55,914 bases of DNA from a virus. Lineage: Duplodnaviria; Caudoviricetes. Of this stretch, positions 13,385 to 24,422 are shown piece by piece. Below the pieces are notes generated by a model that searched no databases, had not been told where the DNA came from, and saw only the letters and a list, made by a program, of their open reading frames with translations. Each line of letters opens with the position of its first letter. The stretch's first letter is position 1. Location: positions 1 to 55,914 of the IMG/VR virus record IMGVR_UViG_3300046010_005980. The stretch is one strand, 5' to 3'. Made by a program: the position numbers and the translations under genes.

Positions 13385-13588
13385 CTAGAACCGTTCGCCT
13401 GTCTCCTCGCCCCACTGACTGCGTGGGGCAAGTTGCTGGCCGCCGCCGTTGTATTCGGTGCCGCAGTTGCACTCGTTGGCCCAGCTGTCGTGCAGGGTCA
13501 GGTGCGTGCCGCAGTCGCATTGGATGGTGACGAACCGGCGCACGCGGCCGTTCCAGTTCTCTTCGACGAAGCCTGTTCTCTTTGCCAT
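13385..13588 (-). CDS. Small zinc-ribbon-like protein
   Basis: CDCG...CNCG; GGAGGA RBS. Confidence 0.65.
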   Translation of the reverse strand: MAKRTGFVEENWNGRVRRFVTIQCDCGTHLTLHDSWANECNCGTEYNGGGQQLAPRSQWGEETGERF

Positions 13589-13589
13589 G

Positions 13590-13817
13590 TCAGTCCTCCT
13601 CCCAGTAGTCATCCGACCCGTCGATCTCGCGGGCCATCCGCTGGTAGATCGCATTCTGACGCTCGGCGGTGTCCCTGTCGTCTTCCATCTGGACGCAGCG
13701 CGACTCGGGGAACTCTTCCTGAACGTAGGCCCAAGCGGCCTCGCGACAGGTTGCGTTGAACGTGTGGCCGAACTCGCAGCCCGTCTCGTCCAGCATTACG
13801 GCGTGGTATTGTGTCAT
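13590..13817 (-). CDS. Hypothetical early protein
   Basis: ACGGAGAAC RBS, acidic. Confidence 0.7.
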   Translation of the reverse strand: MTQYHAVMLDETGCEFGHTFNATCREAAWAYVQEEFPESRCVQMEDDRDTAERQNAIYQRMAREIDGSDDYWEED

Positions 13818-15307: not shown

Positions 15308-15355
15308 TTGGTCCGCCCGCGCTGAGCCTGCGAAGCGCGGTTAACAGCGGACCAA
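15308..15355. other. Bulged hairpin 1 (TTAACA bulge)
   Basis: TTGGTCCGC|CCGCGC-loop-GCGCGG|TTAACA|GCGGACCAA. Confidence 0.7.
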
Positions 15356-15525: not shown

Positions 15526-15565
15526 AGGCCCGCCCGCGCCCCCGGGCGCGGTTAACAGCGGGCCT
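15526..15565. other. Bulged hairpin 2 (TTAACA bulge)
   Basis: AGGCCCGC|CCGCGCC-CCCG-GGCGCGG|TTAACA|GCGGGCCT. Confidence 0.7.
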
Positions 15566-15863: not shown

Positions 15864-15897
15864 ACTTGTTGACAACCAACAACACCTAGACTACCAC
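15864..15897 (+). promoter_or_regulatory. Rightward sigma70-like promoter with palindrome
   Basis: TTGACA at 15869, N17, TACCAC; TTGTTG-N5-CAACAA overlaps the -35. Confidence 0.45.
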
Positions 15898-15930
15898 TGA
15901 AATAGAACCGCGGCCCAAGGAGCTTTGTCC

Positions 15931-16269
15931 ATGCCACTTTTCCGCAAGAAGCCTGTCATGATCGAGGCGGTGCAGTTTGAGCGCTTAACTCTGCTCGAGG
16001 GTGATGTGTACAACATCCAGTTCGACATGTCGGAGTCTTTGCCCAAGTGGGTGCGGAACGCGATCATCGACGACATTCTCTGCCCAAACTTCAAGGACGG
16101 GAAAACTTTGGTGGTTACGACGCTGGAGGGGGAACACATTGTTTCGCCGGGCGACTGGATCATCTGCGGCGTGAAGGGTGAGTTGTATCCCTGCAAGCCT
16201 GATATTTTTGCCATGACTTACGATCCTGTTGACGAGCAGGACGTCGAGGTCACGGGCGTAGCAATCTGA
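15931..16269 (+). CDS. Conserved phage protein (PGDW/PGDY motif family)
   Basis: FRKKPVMIEAVQ...TLEG...SPGDWII.GVKGELYPCKPDIF..TY. Confidence 0.8.
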   Translation: MPLFRKKPVMIEAVQFERLTLLEGDVYNIQFDMSESLPKWVRNAIIDDILCPNFKDGKTLVVTTLEGEHIVSPGDWIICGVKGELYPCKPDIFAMTYDPVDEQDVEVTGVAI

Positions 16270-16279
16270 GGAGAGAGAC

Positions 16280-16567
16280 ATGCCACTGAAGTACAAAGAA
16301 GACGCCGACTTCGCTGCCCATAACCAGCGGGCGAACGACACGGCGGAGCGGGAGCTGAAGGAGATGCTTGCTCAGATCGAGTCTGCCATCGAGCAGAAGA
16401 AGGATGCGTCGCGTGACGAGAGCGACATCTACACTGTCGCAAAGAGCAAGGGCTACAACATCCGGGCGCTCAAGCGGCTGGTCAAAGAACGCCAGAGGGA
16501 CGCGGAGGAACTCCGTGAGGAGGTGGACGCTTTGCAGCTATACAAGCAGCTTGTTGGTATGATATAG
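16280..16567 (+). CDS. gapR: GapR-like (DUF2312) nucleoid-associated protein
   Basis: ELKEMLAQIE...EQKKD...DIYTVAKSKGYNIRALKRLV..R.RD..E..EE...LQLY...VGM matches the GapR pattern. Confidence 0.75.
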   Translation: MPLKYKEDADFAAHNQRANDTAERELKEMLAQIESAIEQKKDASRDESDIYTVAKSKGYNIRALKRLVKERQRDAEELREEVDALQLYKQLVGMI

Positions 16568-16576
16568 TTCTGCCAC

Positions 16577-16670
16577 GCCCTGTGTTCTCCCGCGGGGAAA
16601 GTTTCCGCCGGTCCTCCTCCTCCCGGCGTTGAGGCTTGAAGACCCGTCGCTGCCGCGGCGGGTCTTCTTC
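16577..16670 (+). ncRNA. Candidate cuckoo-like anti-Shine-Dalgarno sRNA
   Basis: Two hairpins with CU-rich loops (UUCUCC; UCCUCCUCCUC, including CCUCCUCCC) followed by a terminator hairpin. Confidence 0.5.
16638..16670 (+). terminator. Intrinsic terminator
   Basis: GAAGACCCGTCGC-TGCC-GCGGCGGGTCTTC-TT. Confidence 0.65.
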
Positions 16671-16731
16671 GTTGAGAAACCCCTGCCGGGCTGCTATAGT
16701 TCCAAGGACCACGGACCTTGGAGCTTTAGGC

Positions 16732-19215
16732 ATGGCCCCCAATCGCATGACGGCATACCAAAACGCTCGGGCGGCAACCCCGCCCCAGAAGGGTCTGACC
16801 TACTCCGAGCTTCTGCTCGACAACATCATCGGCTTGGACAACGACTACCTGTCTGCCGGGGAGCAGCTGGGGCAGGCGTTCAATGCGGACGAGATCGGCT
16901 TTCTGAAGAACGCTGGCATCTCGGCCTACGAGGGCGCGAAGAAGGTCGTTGCGGACCCCATCGGCGCGGGCGAGGAACTCCTGTTCGGCATCTACGACAG
17001 CGTGGAGAACCTTGCCACCGAGGATTTGGACGCGCGGCTCAAGCGCATGTACGGCATTGGCTACGATCAGGCGTCCGAGGACCAAGTCACGAGCGCCCGG
17101 GAGTCGGTGTTCGGGGATGCAGTTACGGCGTCCGGGCTTATCCCGGGCGCGGCTCTGGCGGGCACGGGCGTCAAGGGCCTCGCATCTTTGCCCTTCCGGG
17201 GAGAGCGCAGGGCGCAGGAGCGGATTGCCGAACTGGACGCACTTCGGGCGGAGCGGCAAGCGGAATACGATCCGGGGGATGACTTCGAACCGGGGGATGA
17301 CTACTGGGCGGCGCAGGATCGGATGCTGGCCCGACAGACGCCTATCCGGGAGCTTCAGCTAAGGGAGGCCGAGGGCGGAGATGTGACTGCCGCCGAGCGT
17401 GATCGCCTCGAGGCGGCCGGGCTGCCTGACGGACTTGACCGCCTTCCGTCCCTTCTCGAGCGGGTGCAGCGCGGAGACGTTCTGACGGACGAAGAGGCCT
17501 TCGACGTCATGACCTTTGAACGCTTTGGCGAGGATGGGGTATATGACCCCACTAACACCTTCGAGCGCTGGGGTCAGCAACAAAACGCGGACACGGAAGG
17601 TGCAGCCCGAATCGCCTTCCTGACCGGAGCCAACACGGACATTGGTCAGACTCCAGTCACCCCCGTCGAGGGTCCGTACTTCCAAGACAACCCAGCCTTC
17701 CAAGTCCCTGACCTCCCCGGCGAAGCACCGTTCCTCGCCGTTGAGGACATGCTGGACTTCCACCCAGACGACATTAACTTTGACGCCCCTCTATACAACG
17801 CTATGGGGCTTATGCCGGATGAGGCCGATGAGTACGGAGCCCTTGAGGATTATCTAAGAGTCGGGGGTGGGCTCACCGAGACGGAGGCCGAAGAGGCACG
17901 AGCCCAGCTTGACGAGTTGAGGGAGACCGGAAGACGACGCCTCGCCGCAAATCGGCCGTTCGAGGTCCGCCCGGCCGTGGGCCAAGCCGAAGGCATCGCT
18001 GGCCTATACAGCCCGACGCGCAAGGCCGTCGATCTGTTGGATCGCCCGTCCTACGACAACCTCGACAGCCTGAAGACGCAGCTTCTGAACCGCGGTGCAA
18101 AGCCCGAAGAACTTGAACGTCTTATGGCAAAAATCCCCGGAACTCAAAACAACCCCATGTCCGAGGAGCAGCTCGAGTCGTTCTTGAGTGACCCAAGGTC
18201 CGGGCAGTTTAGCAAGGAAGACCTTGCCAGACTGGCGGACGAAGTTTCTCAGGACGTGGTCGTCAGCACTCGGACGCTGAAAAACAGCCAAGACAACCCT
18301 TCGTTCCTTGACAGCACCTACTTCCCACAAGGTGCCGAGGATATAGGGGCCAACGTCTTCGAGGTCCCTGTATCCGACGCTCCACCCCAAGCCTTCAGAC
18401 ATTTCAAACGTTCTTCGGACGGCACCGCCCCTGTCTTCCACACTCGCTTCGGCCTGTTCCGCTCTCCGGGGTCGGACAAGCCAGACACCTACCACGTCGG
18501 CGAAATCCAGTCAGACTGGGCGCAGGCTCGTCAGAAGCTGTACCCAACACGCGAGGAGTATACGGCAGCGAGGAGCAAGCTTGACGAGCTCCTTGCGAGG
18601 AGCAACGAGCTTGAAAATGAACGTAAGCTCCTAAGAGAAACCTTTGACGGGGAGACCCTCGAGCAGTTTGAAAAACGTAACAAACGTTTCTTCGCCGCAA
18701 TGGACGAGCAGGTCGAAGTTAACAAAGCGATTCGACCGCTTTCCGAAAAGGTGTCTGCCACAGGAAGTTACGGAACCCGGGACGAGTTCGACGCCAAGCA
18801 CCCTGCGCCATACGTCGGAACCACCAGCAAATGGGTACAGCTCGGCCTGCGCCAGTCACTCCTCGATGCGGTGAACAAAGGTGCAAGGCGCATGACGGTC
18901 ACGACCGGTGAGCAGGCACAAAAGTTCATCGGCGGGACGTTGGAGGGGCAGACGAAGTTCTACGACGATATCGTCCAGAAAGAACTCGAAGCGGTGCTCA
19001 AAAAGTTCGCCAAAGAGGCGGGCATCCGGAAGCCCGAGATTACGACGTCAAAGATCGTAGGAAACCGCAGGCAGGAGTACATGGTCCCCACGGTTGAGTT
19101 CACCGACGAGTTCGTCGAGGCCCTCAAGCGTCTGGGCATGCCCACCTACGCCAAAGGCGGCATCGTCAAGGGAAGCTATCTGGACAACGACCCCCTCGAA
19201 CCAGCCCTTTATTGA
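16732..19215 (+). CDS. Large polyvalent-protein-like product (probable internal virion protein)
   Basis: LYSP...GAKPEEL, HF...HTRF...VGEIQSDW, APY...W..LGLR...A...G, KFYD motifs recalled from phage polyvalent proteins; C-terminal YAKGGIV. Confidence 0.6.
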   Translation: MAPNRMTAYQNARAATPPQKGLTYSELLLDNIIGLDNDYLSAGEQLGQAFNADEIGFLKNAGISAYEGAKKVVADPIGAGEELLFGIYDSVENLATEDLDARLKRMYGIGYDQASEDQVTSARESVFGDAVTASGLIPGAALAGTGVKGLASLPFRGERRAQERIAELDALRAERQAEYDPGDDFEPGDDYWAAQDRMLARQTPIRELQLREAEGGDVTAAERDRLEAAGLPDGLDRLPSLLERVQRGDVLTDEEAFDVMTFERFGEDGVYDPTNTFERWGQQQNADTEGAARIAFLTGANTDIGQTPVTPVEGPYFQDNPAFQVPDLPGEAPFLAVEDMLDFHPDDINFDAPLYNAMGLMPDEADEYGALEDYLRVGGGLTETEAEEARAQLDELRETGRRRLAANRPFEVRPAVGQAEGIAGLYSPTRKAVDLLDRPSYDNLDSLKTQLLNRGAKPEELERLMAKIPGTQNNPMSEEQLESFLSDPRSGQFSKEDLARLADEVSQDVVVSTRTLKNSQDNPSFLDSTYFPQGAEDIGANVFEVPVSDAPPQAFRHFKRSSDGTAPVFHTRFGLFRSPGSDKPDTYHVGEIQSDWAQARQKLYPTREEYTAARSKLDELLARSNELENERKLLRETFDGETLEQFEKRNKRFFAAMDEQVEVNKAIRPLSEKVSATGSYGTRDEFDAKHPAPYVGTTSKWVQLGLRQSLLDAVNKGARRMTVTTGEQAQKFIGGTLEGQTKFYDDIVQKELEAVLKKFAKEAGIRKPEITTSKIVGNRRQEYMVPTVEFTDEFVEALKRLGMPTYAKGGIVKGSYLDNDPLEPALY

Positions 19216-19941: not shown

Positions 19942-20232
19942 ATGCGTCCTCGTCCCAAGAAACCCGGCGAAACCGTCGCGGAATACAACGCATTCATCGC
20001 CAACCTGCCCAAGCGCGGCGGGCAGCCCGGCACCGGCCCGAAGCCCAAGCCTATGCCTATGCCGCCGAGCGGCGGTGGCCGCGGTCGCGGCGGCGCAACC
20101 CCGCCTCCGGGCATGATGTACGGTCCGAATGACGCGCTTATGCCTATCCCTAAGAAGGGCGGCTCTGCCACTGGTGGCGGCAGGCCTGTCATGCGCGCCA
20201 AAGGCGGCATGGTCAAAGGCAAGAAGAAGTAA
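19942..20232 (+). CDS. Small basic P/G/K-rich late protein
   Basis: AGGAG RBS; RAKGGMV near the C-terminus. Confidence 0.65.
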   Translation: MRPRPKKPGETVAEYNAFIANLPKRGGQPGTGPKPKPMPMPPSGGGRGRGGATPPPGMMYGPNDALMPIPKKGGSATGGGRPVMRAKGGMVKGKKK

Positions 20233-20969: not shown

Positions 20970-23900
20970 ATGCCTGCAGCCAATAAAGGCACCCGCGACA
21001 TGACCCGCGCAGCGGCCGACAATGCCGCACGGCAGAAAACCAAGTCAAAAACCGTCGTCGCGCCTAAGAAAGCGGTGATTGCGGGACAGCCCCACATGCT
21101 GGCCTACATCAACAAGGACGAACGGCGGCTGCTGAAGGCCTTGGGCGGCGCTGACATCCCCGGCCCGGCCGGGATTCGGTCGTTTCCCCCGGCGGGGGAC
21201 CGTGCAGGCAGCAGGGGCGGCTCTTCGGGCGGAAGCAAAGGCGGCTCGGTAGATCGCGACCGTCAGGGCGGCACATCCTCTGCCGGGTCCAGCAAGGGCG
21301 GCACATCCTCTGCCGGGTCCAGCAAGGGCGGCACATCCTCTGCCGGGTCCAGCAAGGGTAACACCGCCAGCGTAGATCGCGACCGTCAGGGTTCGTCTAA
21401 CACGGCCGCGGCGAACAAAGCTGCTGCAGAAAAAGCAGCGGCCGACAAGGCGGCGAAAGACAGGGCCGACAAGGCTGCAGCAGATAAAGCGGCAGCAGAC
21501 AAGGCGGCAGCCGAAAGGGCTGCCCGGGAGAGGATTGCCGCCGCAGAAAAAGCAGCGGCCGACAAGGCGGCAGCAGACAAGGCGGCAGCCGAAAGGGCTG
21601 CCCGGGAGAGGATTGCCGCCGCAGAAAAAGCAGCGGCAGAAAAAGCAGCGGCAGATAAGGCAGCAGCAGACAAGGCGGCAGCAGACAAGGCGGCAGCAGA
21701 CAAGGCCGCCTCTGAAAGGGCTGCCCGGGAGAGGATTGCCGCCGCAGAAAAAGCAGCGGCAGAAAAAGCAGCGGCAGAAAAAGCAGCGGCAGAAAAAGCA
21801 GCGGCAGAAAAAGCAGCGGCAGAAAAAGCAGCGGCAGATAAGGCAGCGGCAGATAAGGCAGCGGCAGATAAGGCGGCGGCAGATAAGGCGGCGGCAGATA
21901 AGGCGGCAGCAGAAAAAGCAGCGGCAGATAAGGCGGCAGCAGAAAAAGCAGCGGCAGATAAGGCGGCAGCAGACAAGGCGGCAGCCGAAAGGGCTGCCCG
22001 GGAGAGGATTGCCGCCGCAGAAAAAGCAGCGGCAGATAAGGCGGCAGCAGACAAGGCGGCAGCAGACAAGGCGGCGGCCGAGAAGGCCACTCGTGACAAG
22101 ATTGCCGCCGCTGAAAAAGCTGCGGCAGATAAGGCGGCAGCAGACAAGGCGGCAGCAGACAAGGCGGCGGCCGACAAGGCGGCGGCCGAGAAGGCCACTC
22201 GTGACAAGATTGCCGCCGCTGAAAAAGCTGCGGCTGAGAAGGCCGCCGCCGCAGCTACACCCAACAAGCCGACGGTATCAACCACGGCTCCAACGCTTTC
22301 TCAGCCCTCGGCCATCCAACCGATCAAGGCGGTGACTCCGACCACGGTTGCCACCCCGGCCGGGCCGCAAACTGTTTCGTCCACGTCCTCGGCCGCCGCG
22401 GTAACCCCCGCGCCTGCCGCCGCGGCAGTCTCCACAGCCCCGAAGCCCGAAGCTCCGACGGTAGCCCCCGCCCCCGGAATCACCGCTACGGGGGCTGCTT
22501 CTGGCACCACGGGCGTAGGCGCAAGCGCCACGTCCCCCGCAAAGTCCGGAACAGTCACTGTCGCTACTCCGGCCGGGCCGCAGCAGGTTGCCGTCGGATC
22601 AAACGCTGCCGACGTGAAGGCCACCCCCGCCGCAACGGCGGTTTCTACGGCCCCGAAGGCCGAGGCTCCAGCTTCGGCGACCACGGGCTTGGGACCGTAC
22701 AAAGAAGGCATGACGGTCTCGGCCAATATGTCCAAGGCTTTTGGTCTCCCCGAGGGCAGCAAGCTCAGCGCCACCGACGCGCTGCGCGCAAACAACGCCG
22801 CTCAGGCCGCTGGTCTGGTTGACCCGGCCACGGGCCAGCCCTCCCCGGCCATCAAGGGCGCGGTTACCACGATTGGCACTGCCGCAGGTGCCACGCCTAC
22901 CTCTCGGCAGGCCGCGCTTCAGGCCGCCTTGAAAAGCGCCCCTACGTTCACCAGCAGCAACAACATCCGGACCTTCTTCCCGGGCCTGACCATATCAAAC
23001 GAGCTAAACCTCGACATCGCAACGGGTGCGTCGGGTCAGACAGTCGTTGTCAAAGACCCCAGCGGCAAGGTCATTGGGACTTTTAACCAAGCCCCGACGA
23101 TGGCGCAGATGCAGGACTTGGCCACCAAGAACGGCTTTAAGTCGGTTCAGGTCCCGTCGGGCGTGGACCTTGTAAGCGATGTAAACGCTAGTTCTCAGTT
23201 CGAAACGGCGCTGGACTACAATACCAGCCGCCTGACACTGGATAAAAAGGACCCTCTAAAAGTTGATCTTGTGACGGAAGAACAGCTCGACAAGATGTTC
23301 CCGCCGAAGACGAATCCGACGTCGCCTCCGGCCGTCACCCCACAGCCTCCCACCACTCGCCCGGACAGCGGCGGGATTACGGCGGTTGCCCCACAGCCTC
23401 CCACCACTCGCCCGGACAGCGGCGGGATTACGGCGGTTGCCCCACAGCCTCCCACCACTCGCCCGGACAGCGGCGGGATTACGGCGGTTGTTCCCAAGCC
23501 GGAGACTCCCAAGCCAGTGACGCCGACGCCTCCCAAGCCGGAGACTCCCAAGCCCGTCACGCCGGAGACTCCCAAGCCCGTCACGCCGGAGACTCCCAAG
23601 CCCGTCACGCCGGAGACTCCCAAGCCCGTCACGCCGACGCCAGTGACGCCAGTCACCCCGACGGTCCCAACGACTCCAACAACCCCCAAGCCAGAGACCC
23701 CCAAACCGACGGTCCCAACGCCTCCCAAGCCGGAGACTCCCAAGCCGGAGACTCCCAAGCCAGTGACGCCGGAGACTCCCAAGCCGGAGACTCCCAAGCC
23801 CGTCACGCCGGAGACTCCCAAGCCCGTCACCCCTACGGTTCCAACGACCCCTACTCCGGGCGGCGGAACTCAACCGGGCACCGGGACGGGAACGGGCACC

Positions 23901-24422
23901 GGGACGGGCACCGGGACGGGAACGGGCACTGGGACGGGCACGGGAACGGGCACTGGGACGGGCACGGGCACGGGAACGGGCACGGGAACGGGCACGGGAA
24001 CGGGAACGGGAACGGGAACGGGCGGTGGCGGCGGTGAAACAACCCCACCCACTCCCTCCGGCCCCAAGACCTGTCCTCCGGGGTACAAGCTCCACACGTT
24101 CCCGGACGGAAGTACCACTTGTATTCCCACCACAAGTGGTACAGGAATGGTCCGTCCAATTGTTGCTCCGTTCTATCAGCCCGTTGGTGGGCGGAGAGCC
24201 CAAGGTTACGAGCCTTCTCTTGGGATCGGCACTTTGCCGACCACTCCTCCGAACGCTGGGTTCGAGCCCTGGTGGGGGGACATGCCAGAAGGATTTATTC
24301 CGCCGCCTCCGGGCAGTGTCACTACGCAGGCGTTCGTTAGGTTCGTGAATCCCACGACAGGAGAAGTCTTCAACGCCCCCAACGGAGGGTACACACCCCC
24401 GAAAGGTTGGGTGCGGGGGTAA
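20970..24422 (+). CDS. Giant low-complexity protein (AAA[D/E]K helical repeats, PETPKPVT repeats, GT repeats)
   Basis: 1150-aa ORF; non-repetitive N-terminal [16 protein letters not shown]...GPAGI.SF segment. Confidence 0.8.
21400..22256 (+). repeat. 15-bp coding tandem repeats (AAA[D/E]K)
   Basis: GCAGCGGCAGAAAAA / GCGGCAGCAGACAAG units, interspersed with ERAARERI and ATRDKI units. Confidence 0.9.
23339..23835 (+). repeat. Coding repeats: 3 x 51 bp ([16 protein letters not shown]) then 24/15-bp PETPK(PVT) units
   Basis: Directly visible. Confidence 0.85.
23876..24021 (+). repeat. 6-bp coding microsatellite (Gly-Thr)n
   Basis: GG(C/A/G)AC(C/G/T) tandem units. Confidence 0.9.

Follow-up and report, generated by a model that had tools for sequence, protein, structure and literature searches.

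A conserved two-hairpin RNA element with anti-Shine-Dalgarno loops behind gapR in uncultured phages

Introduction

Cuckoo RNAs of Rhizobiales and Rhodobacterales consist of 2 to 4 adjacent hairpins, each carrying CCUCCUCCC or a listed variant in its loop, and the family paper (PMC4615179) limits them to hairpins of 24 to 50 nt with loops of 9 to 27 nt and helices no shorter than 6 bp, joined by linkers no longer than 10 nt. The same paper states that covariance models perform poorly on the family, and it names RNAIII of Staphylococcus aureus as a small RNA with C-rich loops. As described in PMC10746234, ar14 has three hairpins with CCUCCUCCC in each unpaired region, and the redundant loops of NfeR1 cover the ribosome-binding site of ntrB and so silence it. 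CcsR RNAs are two-hairpin RNAs of the anti-Shine-Dalgarno (anti-SD) type that are cut by RNase E from the 3' untranslated region (UTR) of a small-protein mRNA (PMC8034643).

Anti-SD hairpin RNAs are known from bacteria; for a phage of the kind described here we found nothing in print. Few phage-encoded regulatory RNAs are known, and the familiar examples belong to temperate phages that infect enteric bacteria and have been studied in depth. A search of the open literature, with subscription journals outside its scope, found no paper on a phage-borne anti-SD or cuckoo-type RNA, and the word "phage" is absent from the available text of PMC4615179 (cuckoo) and PMC8034643 (CcaF1). The DNA analyzed here, called the window, covers an IMG/VR virus record in full (55,914 bases, with a completeness rating of ~95%). 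A sequence-only reading of it had proposed a cuckoo-like small RNA behind gapR, able to occlude GGAGG ribosome-binding sites, which might serve to shut off the host or to switch from early to late genes.

Results

Phage genome and the gapR unit

The large terminase encoded in the window is 58% identical to that of Pelagibacter phage HTVC027P and its kin, and genes for portal, tail-fibre, ejection and helicase proteins can be recognised. The window has no tRNA genes. In blastn searches against GenBank phages, the region gave no match at the DNA level and the bare element gave nothing that matched over the element itself. PHROG and Pfam searches yielded no function for most of the neighbouring genes. 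A GapR scan of genome contigs from 185,579 species confirmed none of 100 candidate stretches and provided no lead to a host or prophage.

Minus-strand genes, one with a strong PHROG match, extend to ~15.3 kb, and a gene-free stretch of ~600 nt separates this block from the gapR unit. A 19-nt repeat, GCGCGGTTAACAGCGG(A/G)CC, lies inside the gene-free stretch at 15335-15353 and 15546-15564, 211 nt apart, and may serve as an operator or be connected with an origin. The unit itself and its downstream border have the following features.

15869-15874 and 15892-15897, plus strand: likely early promoter, TTGACA and TACCAC with a 17-nt spacer (putative function)
15931-16269, plus strand: small open reading frame (ORF), phrog_419, function not assigned, first gene of the unit
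16280-16567, plus strand: gapR, 95 aa, with a GapR-like DNA-binding domain (PF10073)
16539-16568, plus strand: candidate promoter of the RNA's own, TATACA, 18 nt, TG-A-TATAGT (9 of 12, plus TG; putative function)
16575, plus strand: predicted 5' end, a purine 7 nt past the -10 box, read from the sequence alignment
16578-16597, plus strand: hairpin H1, CCCUGUG-UUCUCC-CGCGGGG, 7 pairs, 2 of them G-U
16599-16637, plus strand: hairpin H2, lower and upper stem, loop UCCUCCUCCUC
16638-16667, plus strand: intrinsic terminator, GAAGACCCGUCGC-UGCC-GCGGCGGGUCUUC, 13-bp stem, with the tail UUCGUU running to 16673
16672-16724, plus strand: next promoter, TTGAGA-17-TGCTATAGT (16672-16700), and leader hairpin CCAAGGACCACGGACCUUGG (16702-16721)

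The phrog_419 ORF likely starts at the ATG at 15931, with AAGGAG at 15917-15922. GapR matches PF10073 over profile positions 2-71 of 72 with an E value of 6e-12 and 45.4 bits, above the Pfam cut-off of 22.6. The promoter and leader at 16672-16724 lie outside the RNA, mark its 3' border, and precede an 827-aa ORF (16732-19215), with structural genes farther downstream. The element is the end of a short unit (promoter, small ORF, gapR, RNA and terminator) that borders the late region; judged by this layout, the unit is probably early.

Two large ORFs that follow soon after the element, the 827-aa ORF and one of 1150 aa (20970-24422), belong to no PHROG family, and the former has only a sub-threshold Pfam match. 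The promoter and leader hairpin in front of the 827-aa ORF share a layout with other loci, in which a -10 box of the TGnTATAGT type is followed by CCAAGGACCACGGACCUUGG and then GGAG, the 3' arm of the hairpin overlapping the Shine-Dalgarno sequence. This arrangement recurs before different genes among the relatives, 3' of the element in L013, L019, L021, L037, L039 and L043 and 5' of gapR in L002, and from its recurrence it appears to behave like a movable expression cassette.

Structure of the element

Every feature listed by the sequence-only reading (H1, H2, the terminator, TATAGT and gapR in front) is present at the positions it gave. The H1 loop, UUCUCC, occupies 16585-16590. The upper stem of H2 pairs CGCCGG (16606-16611) with CCGGCG (16623-16628) around UCCUCCUCCUC (16612-16622), and RNAfold adds a lower stem of 7 bp (16599-16605 with 16631-16637) that was absent from the earlier list. 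The CCUCCUCCC string reported for H2 does occupy 16616-16624, but its final two C residues are paired in the stem rather than exposed in the loop. The shorter CCTCCTCC occurs at 16613 and 16616; at the other sites in the window (13595, 49084 and 55585) it is never in a hairpin loop. The U tract of the terminator is interrupted, and a simple terminator scanner flags the inner part only.

Folding favoured the plus strand, which had a minimum free energy (MFE) of -52.7 kcal/mol (z score of -4.99, with 0 of 200 shuffles as good) compared to -44.6 kcal/mol for the minus strand (z score of -2.03, 9 of 200 shuffles as good). The loops of H1 and H2 were unpaired in both the MFE and the centroid structures.

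Distribution among related loci

GapR searches returned 5 viral loci, 17 metagenome loci and, with a broader profile, 16 viral loci, collections that share some contigs. GapR identity among these relatives was 68 to 100%. The element followed the gapR stop codon in 18 of 22 rows of one set and 7 of 11 rows of another, the contigs being partly shared. About eight sequence forms could be told apart: that of the window (with three terminator versions), L002, L017, L018, L034, L020/L028, L042 and L019. The last of these has a single anti-SD hairpin, whose loop is AUCCUCCC; a U run and then a second terminator hairpin come after it.

Two gapR lineages lack the element. In the L023 type, gapR is followed by a plain short hairpin, and in the L035 type the next ORF begins 3 nt past the stop codon, which indicates that termination is independent of H1 and H2. 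The RNA model matched nowhere in the L035 record, which is rated 100% complete and has gapR; the element is thus accessory and dispensable. Linkage in the other direction was strict. A search with a pattern based on the RNA alone hit 7 viral contigs, each of them already known as a gapR contig, so that in this collection the RNA occurred solely behind gapR. The pair stays together among relatives while the flanks on either side differ. A looser pattern, GCTTCCG..GTTGAAGCC, matched at least 119 stretches and was uninformative, with one weak RNA-model match (L247, 21.7 bits, E value of 0.0048) among 80 loci tested. Five cultured phages encode distant GapR proteins (30 to 41% identity). Among the three of these five loci that were examined, two had the next gene immediately after gapR, and Pkon1 had a 136-nt gap without tandem CCUCC hairpins.

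Covariation and selection on the loops

A covariance model built from 3 sequences of the window form only found a single copy in the window and recovered all other forms except L019 at E values of 2.2e-6 or lower. Over 12 distinct rows, 94.5% of paired cells could pair, compared to 44.6 to 51.1% in six slid controls whose partners were shifted by 1 to 3 columns. Double changes occurred in 16 of 28 pairs versus 2 to 4 in the slid controls, and the observed pairing values were reached by 0 of 500 column shuffles, in an alignment that was fitted to the model and therefore favours the structure. In an alignment made with MAFFT only, 9 of 26 pairs still had double changes, the covariation lying in H2 and the terminator. 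Double changes affected 8 of the 10 modelled terminator pairs. Many pairs in the alignment are G-U, which would be A-C on the opposite strand. Folded separately, the forms adopted the same plan, with the exception of L020/L028, which on its own favours a different fold in place of H1 and H2.

Within these changing stems the loop core is constant. CCUCC was found in the H2 loop of all 12 rows and CUCC in the H1 loop of 11; the twelfth, L002, is misaligned and has the loop CUCUCUCCC according to RNAfold. None of the rows has the motif in its terminator loop. Several of the loops (GACCUCCA, GUCCUCCA) resemble the 3' end of 16S rRNA. Fourfold-degenerate sites of gapR show an identity of 0.33 to 0.57 for most pairs between forms. 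Because the loop core is constant while the stems are rebuilt and the fourfold sites are only 33 to 57% identical, the core is under selection. A contig variant from RNA libraries combines 16578 C>U with 16594 G>A, both of which keep the pairing, and has the H2 loop UACACCUCCUC.

The sequence-only reading had made its proposal depend on conservation of the loops in related phages, and CCUCC or CUCC is present in both loops of all element-bearing forms with covarying stems. Fold and covariation likewise bear out its picture of a structured, terminator-ended module with exposed anti-SD loops behind a phage gapR. The structure is real, strand-specific, conserved and covarying, its loop cores are selected, and it is strictly tied to gapR.

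Two possible routes to the RNA

The RNA, of ~100 nt, would be the 3' end of the short early unit (promoter, small ORF, gapR, RNA and terminator), with its own 3' end set by the intrinsic terminator. One route to its release would be processing of the 3' UTR of the gapR mRNA, and the other would be initiation at an extended -10 promoter overlapping the gapR stop codon.

Several properties of the sequence make TATAGT a plausible promoter of the RNA. It lies at 16563-16568, 9 nt 5' of H1, overlapping the last codon of gapR and its TAG stop (16565-16567), and the TG in front of it makes an extended -10 box, TGATATAGT. The 10-mer TGNTATAGTT occurs twice in the window versus 0.04 occurrences expected, the second copy belonging to the clear promoter past the terminator. 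The block that forms the last gapR codon and stop (ATATAG, GTATAA or ATATGA) is missing exactly in those gapR copies that lack the RNA. At the seventh base past the -10 box every form has A or G, and H1 begins 1 to 3 nt later (the first hairpin of L019, ~9 nt later). Three points weigh against this route: most forms have TATAAG as the -10 box and so lack the usual final T, the -35 region lies in coding sequence, and conservation of the -10 box is partly forced by the coding sequence of gapR.

Co-transcription with gapR is suggested by the layout of relatives. In L012, L002, L017 and L018 the unit consists of a promoter, gapR, the element and the terminator. A GTTGACAA(C/T)CAACAAC box directly precedes gapR in L012 and L002, with the shorter GTTGACAA in L017 and L018, and in the window the GTTGACAA(C/T)CAACAAC box of the likely early promoter (15869-15897), with a weak -10, stands before the phrog_419 ORF and gapR. 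Since the box adjoins gapR in those four relatives, gapR and the RNA form a self-contained cassette into which the phage of the window took an extra ORF. Two 151-nt contigs from RNA libraries span the end of gapR and the element, X1 (16468-16617, 1 difference) and X2 (16526-16646, 12 differences). These contigs come from three runs of one study, DNA carry-over is possible in them, and their ends and depths do not represent transcript borders or levels. They fit co-transcription with gapR at least as well as an own promoter.

Comparison with cuckoo, ar14 and CcsR RNAs

The family affiliation put forward by the sequence-only reading did not hold up against Rfam. No family was found at curated cut-offs anywhere in the window. 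The ar14 model (RF02344), with an alignment spanning all of its positions (1-123), scored 30 bits versus a cut-off of 58.8 (E value of 2.1e-5 for the record), CcsR1 (RF02791) reached 16.9 bits versus 65.3, and the Betaproteobacteria toxic small RNA (RF02278) reached 18.4 bits versus 50. Among 11 related loci only two, both with the form seen in the window, gave an ar14 score (30.3 and 25.2 bits), and at an E value of 1 or lower ar14 had no match in 7 other element-bearing sources. In reverse, the phage model matched three certified ar14 copies on viral contigs with E values of 5.8e-5 to 2.5e-3; one such copy gave no blastn match among GenBank phages.

Measured against the family descriptions, the element agrees in part. 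The gap between the end of H1 (16597) and H2, whose lower stem begins at 16599 and whose upper stem begins at 16606, is within the adjacency and linker limits of PMC4615179. By the size limits of the same paper, H2 qualifies with 23 nt (39 nt including the lower stem), an 11-nt loop and 6 + 7 bp, and H1, with 20 nt, a 6-nt loop and 7 bp, does not. The H1 loop reads UUCUCC instead of the CCUCCUCCC or listed variant required by that paper, and relatives have CCUCC or CUCC cores only. The three loops (UUCUCC, UCCUCCUCCUC and UGCC) also differ from the three CCUCCUCCC hairpins of ar14 as given in PMC10746234. Because H1 is outside the limits and relatives carry only the 4- to 5-nt core, the element was not filed as a cuckoo member. 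Certified cuckoo or ar14 membership was rejected on the scores and on the H1 and terminator loops, which lack the family motif.

The Rfam cut-off is itself a weak test for the cuckoo family, since among 17 viral loci whose tandem CCUCCUCCC hairpins are of the textbook type only 3 pass the cut-off for ar14.

CcsR comes closest in layout and NfeR1 in the proposed mechanism. CcsR1-4 and cuckoo HP2 share with the phage element a two-hairpin anti-SD module in the 3' UTR of a small-protein gene and a terminator-like end hairpin (PMC4615179 and PMC8034643), and the RNase E processing of CcsR from its mRNA offers a ready model for the phage RNA (PMC8034643). They differ in that the gene upstream of CcsR encodes the RNA-binding DUF1127 protein CcaF1, whereas no DUF1127 gene adjoins the phage element, whose upstream gene encodes the DNA-binding GapR (PF10073); CcsR RNAs are also clustered, whereas the phage has one copy with a shorter loop motif. 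NfeR1 and ar14 have the same adjacent hairpins with variable stems, anti-SD pyrimidine loops and terminator end, and the action proposed for the phage RNA would be that of NfeR1 on ntrB (PMC10746234). In contrast to the 9-mer in all three ar14 loops, the phage element has the CCUCCUCC string in H2 only, its relatives keep just CCUCC or CUCC, and the setting is an uncultured phage rather than a Rhizobiales chromosome. RF02278 is likewise small and combines a CCUCC-rich stretch with a terminator but differs in architecture and taxon, and the phage element scores far under its cut-off.

Proposed action and candidate targets

The two hairpins would present pyrimidine loops whose CCUCC or CUCC core matches the core of the 16S rRNA 3' end. 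By base pairing, these loops could cover Shine-Dalgarno sequences of the GGAGG type in target mRNAs of the host, the phage or both and would thereby block binding of the 30S subunit, a mode of action established for NfeR1 and proposed for CcsR. Late genes of the phage, called with a crude ORF picker, use GGAG or AGGAG sites. An unselective anti-SD RNA would therefore hit the phage too, and selectivity must lie in extended pairing, timing or dose.

Two candidate targets emerged inside the phage, neither above chance. Eight-mer complementarity gave 60 plus-strand matches in the phage, about the level expected by chance, one of them on the start region of ORF 19942-20232 (GGAGAACAC, against H1). 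Duplex energies over start regions, at best -25.4 kcal/mol, were no better than those of random windows (1st percentile of -24.1 and minimum of -29.3 kcal/mol). The other candidate is a minus-strand ORF of 67 aa (13385-13588), where the extended site GGGAGGAGGAC (13593-13603) could be joined to the H2 loop by 10 Watson-Crick pairs plus a single G-U pair. The same GGGAGGAGGAC also codes for W-E-E-D, the last codons of the preceding 75-aa ORF, and the lone homologue found reads GGGAGGAAGAC. The 67-aa product is Cys-rich with two CxC motifs, and its start codon lies 6 nt past GGGAGGAGGAC, an unusually long Shine-Dalgarno sequence and the best match to the H2 loop inside the phage.

Neighbouring genes showed little sign of being matched to the RNA. 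By eye, the loops were not seen to covary among relatives with the start regions of gapR or of the downstream genes. The same RNA form occurs with three gapR start regions (GAGGAGAGAGAC, AGGAGGAACG and GGGGGAAUGAC) and four downstream genes, which implies that it is not tuned to its neighbours and speaks against a purely cis role.

Discussion

Our preferred reading is that the element is a regulatory RNA, derived from the 3' end of gapR or from its own promoter, that would occlude GGAGG ribosome-binding sites, and we regard the chances for and against it as evenly balanced. As part of this proposal we infer a discrete RNA, the origin of its 5' end, its action in trans and its targets.

The main rival is a cis-acting gapR 3' UTR, whose loops would fold back on the Shine-Dalgarno sequence of their own mRNA or set its stability, limiting a dosage-sensitive nucleoid protein with no free small RNA involved. 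The icaR 3' UTR of Staphylococcus aureus is reportedly the model case for cis anti-SD pairing of this sort. RNAIII and the icaR 3' UTR resemble the phage element in that a C-rich loop or 3' UTR motif pairs with ribosome-binding sites, but they belong to Gram-positive chromosomal genes and are unrelated in sequence. A cis role would sit well with the strict linkage to gapR (7 of 7 contigs from the RNA-only pattern), with the joint travel of gapR and the RNA between variable flanks, and with the RNA-library contigs that join the two; in L012, L002, L017 and L018, where the unit runs from promoter through gapR and RNA to terminator, the hairpins are in the gapR 3' UTR by construction. It is nevertheless unlikely in view of the three gapR start regions that accompany an identical RNA form, the lack of any loop covariation with those regions by eye, the retention of the loop motif in L019, whose gapR is without a clear Shine-Dalgarno sequence, and the two gapR lineages that have no element. 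A purely structural role, as a compound terminator or mRNA-stabilising 3' structure in which the loops are incidental or a protein site and have no base-pairing function, would explain the position at the end of a transcription unit, the good terminator, the complete relative without the element and the failure of searches inside the phage to find a target. It would not explain why the CCUCC or CUCC core is kept in both loops of all forms while the stems compensate and neutral sites are near saturation, nor why the terminator loops of the same RNAs always lack the motif; moreover, gapR copies without H1 and H2 terminate by a plain hairpin, and we consider this role distinctly improbable.

Common descent would be compatible with the preferred reading of a regulatory anti-SD RNA, the element then being a true but diverged cuckoo/ar14/CcsR member captured by the phage from its host. 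Weak reciprocal matches (30 bits for ar14 over its full model, and three certified ar14 copies at 5.8e-5 to 2.5e-3 in reverse) point that way, as does GapR, which suggests an alphaproteobacterial host, and the Rfam cut-off misses most clear cuckoo-type pairs, passing 3 of 17. Set against these, all forms stay under the cut-off and ar14 scores the form of the window only, H1, a hairpin of 20 nt with a loop of 6 nt, is outside the family ranges of 24 to 50 and 9 to 27 nt (PMC4615179), and relatives carry a 4- to 5-nt core in place of CCUCCUCCC. What the two have in common, a loop rich in CU followed by a terminator rich in GC, is also of a kind able to converge, and capture of this sort seems quite doubtful to us. 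Antitermination of the type known from put RNA, in which two hairpins modify RNA polymerase for read-through of a terminator into late genes, would suit two adjacent hairpins placed just 5' of a terminator at the early/late border. It is very improbable here: the conserved part is the loop sequence and not stem or bulge geometry, a separate good promoter follows the terminator, and no Rfam family of that type matched.

For environmental phages without genetics, comparative evidence alone defines in this case an RNA of a phage and points to a clear candidate for its mechanism. If the loops do occlude ribosome-binding sites, they would give phages a simple, testable route for tuning host or phage translation, and the cuckoo mode of action would, if this is true, extend past the chromosomes of Rhizobiales and Rhodobacterales. 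The strict pairing with gapR raises the question of why a protein of DNA topology should move as a pair with an RNA that would block translation.

A broader and tentative suggestion, one we think more likely wrong than right, is that phages repeatedly use anti-SD RNAs and that this has gone unrecognised. In the present clade of uncultured podophages (kin of the HTVC023P type), an RNA whose two loops mimic the 3' end of 16S rRNA would be a mobile cassette with a nucleoid-protein gene, made early and titrating messages with strong Shine-Dalgarno sequences, for host shut-off or timing of the phage's own genes; separately, CCUCCUCCC cuckoo RNAs would adjoin repressor, antirepressor and other genes of other phages and prophages.

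Cuckoo-type hairpin pairs with CCUCCUCCC in both loops were seen on other IMG/VR viral contigs (L081, L098, L099, L113, L121 and others). Among the pattern matches listed, both CCUCCUCCC motifs were in hairpin loops in at least 25 (of 83), ~22 of them convincing. Some of these pairs stand directly behind phage genes, namely, a Pam3 gp34-like gene (L081), a Rha/KilAC antirepressor (L098) and a CI-like repressor with HTH_3 and S24 domains (L099).
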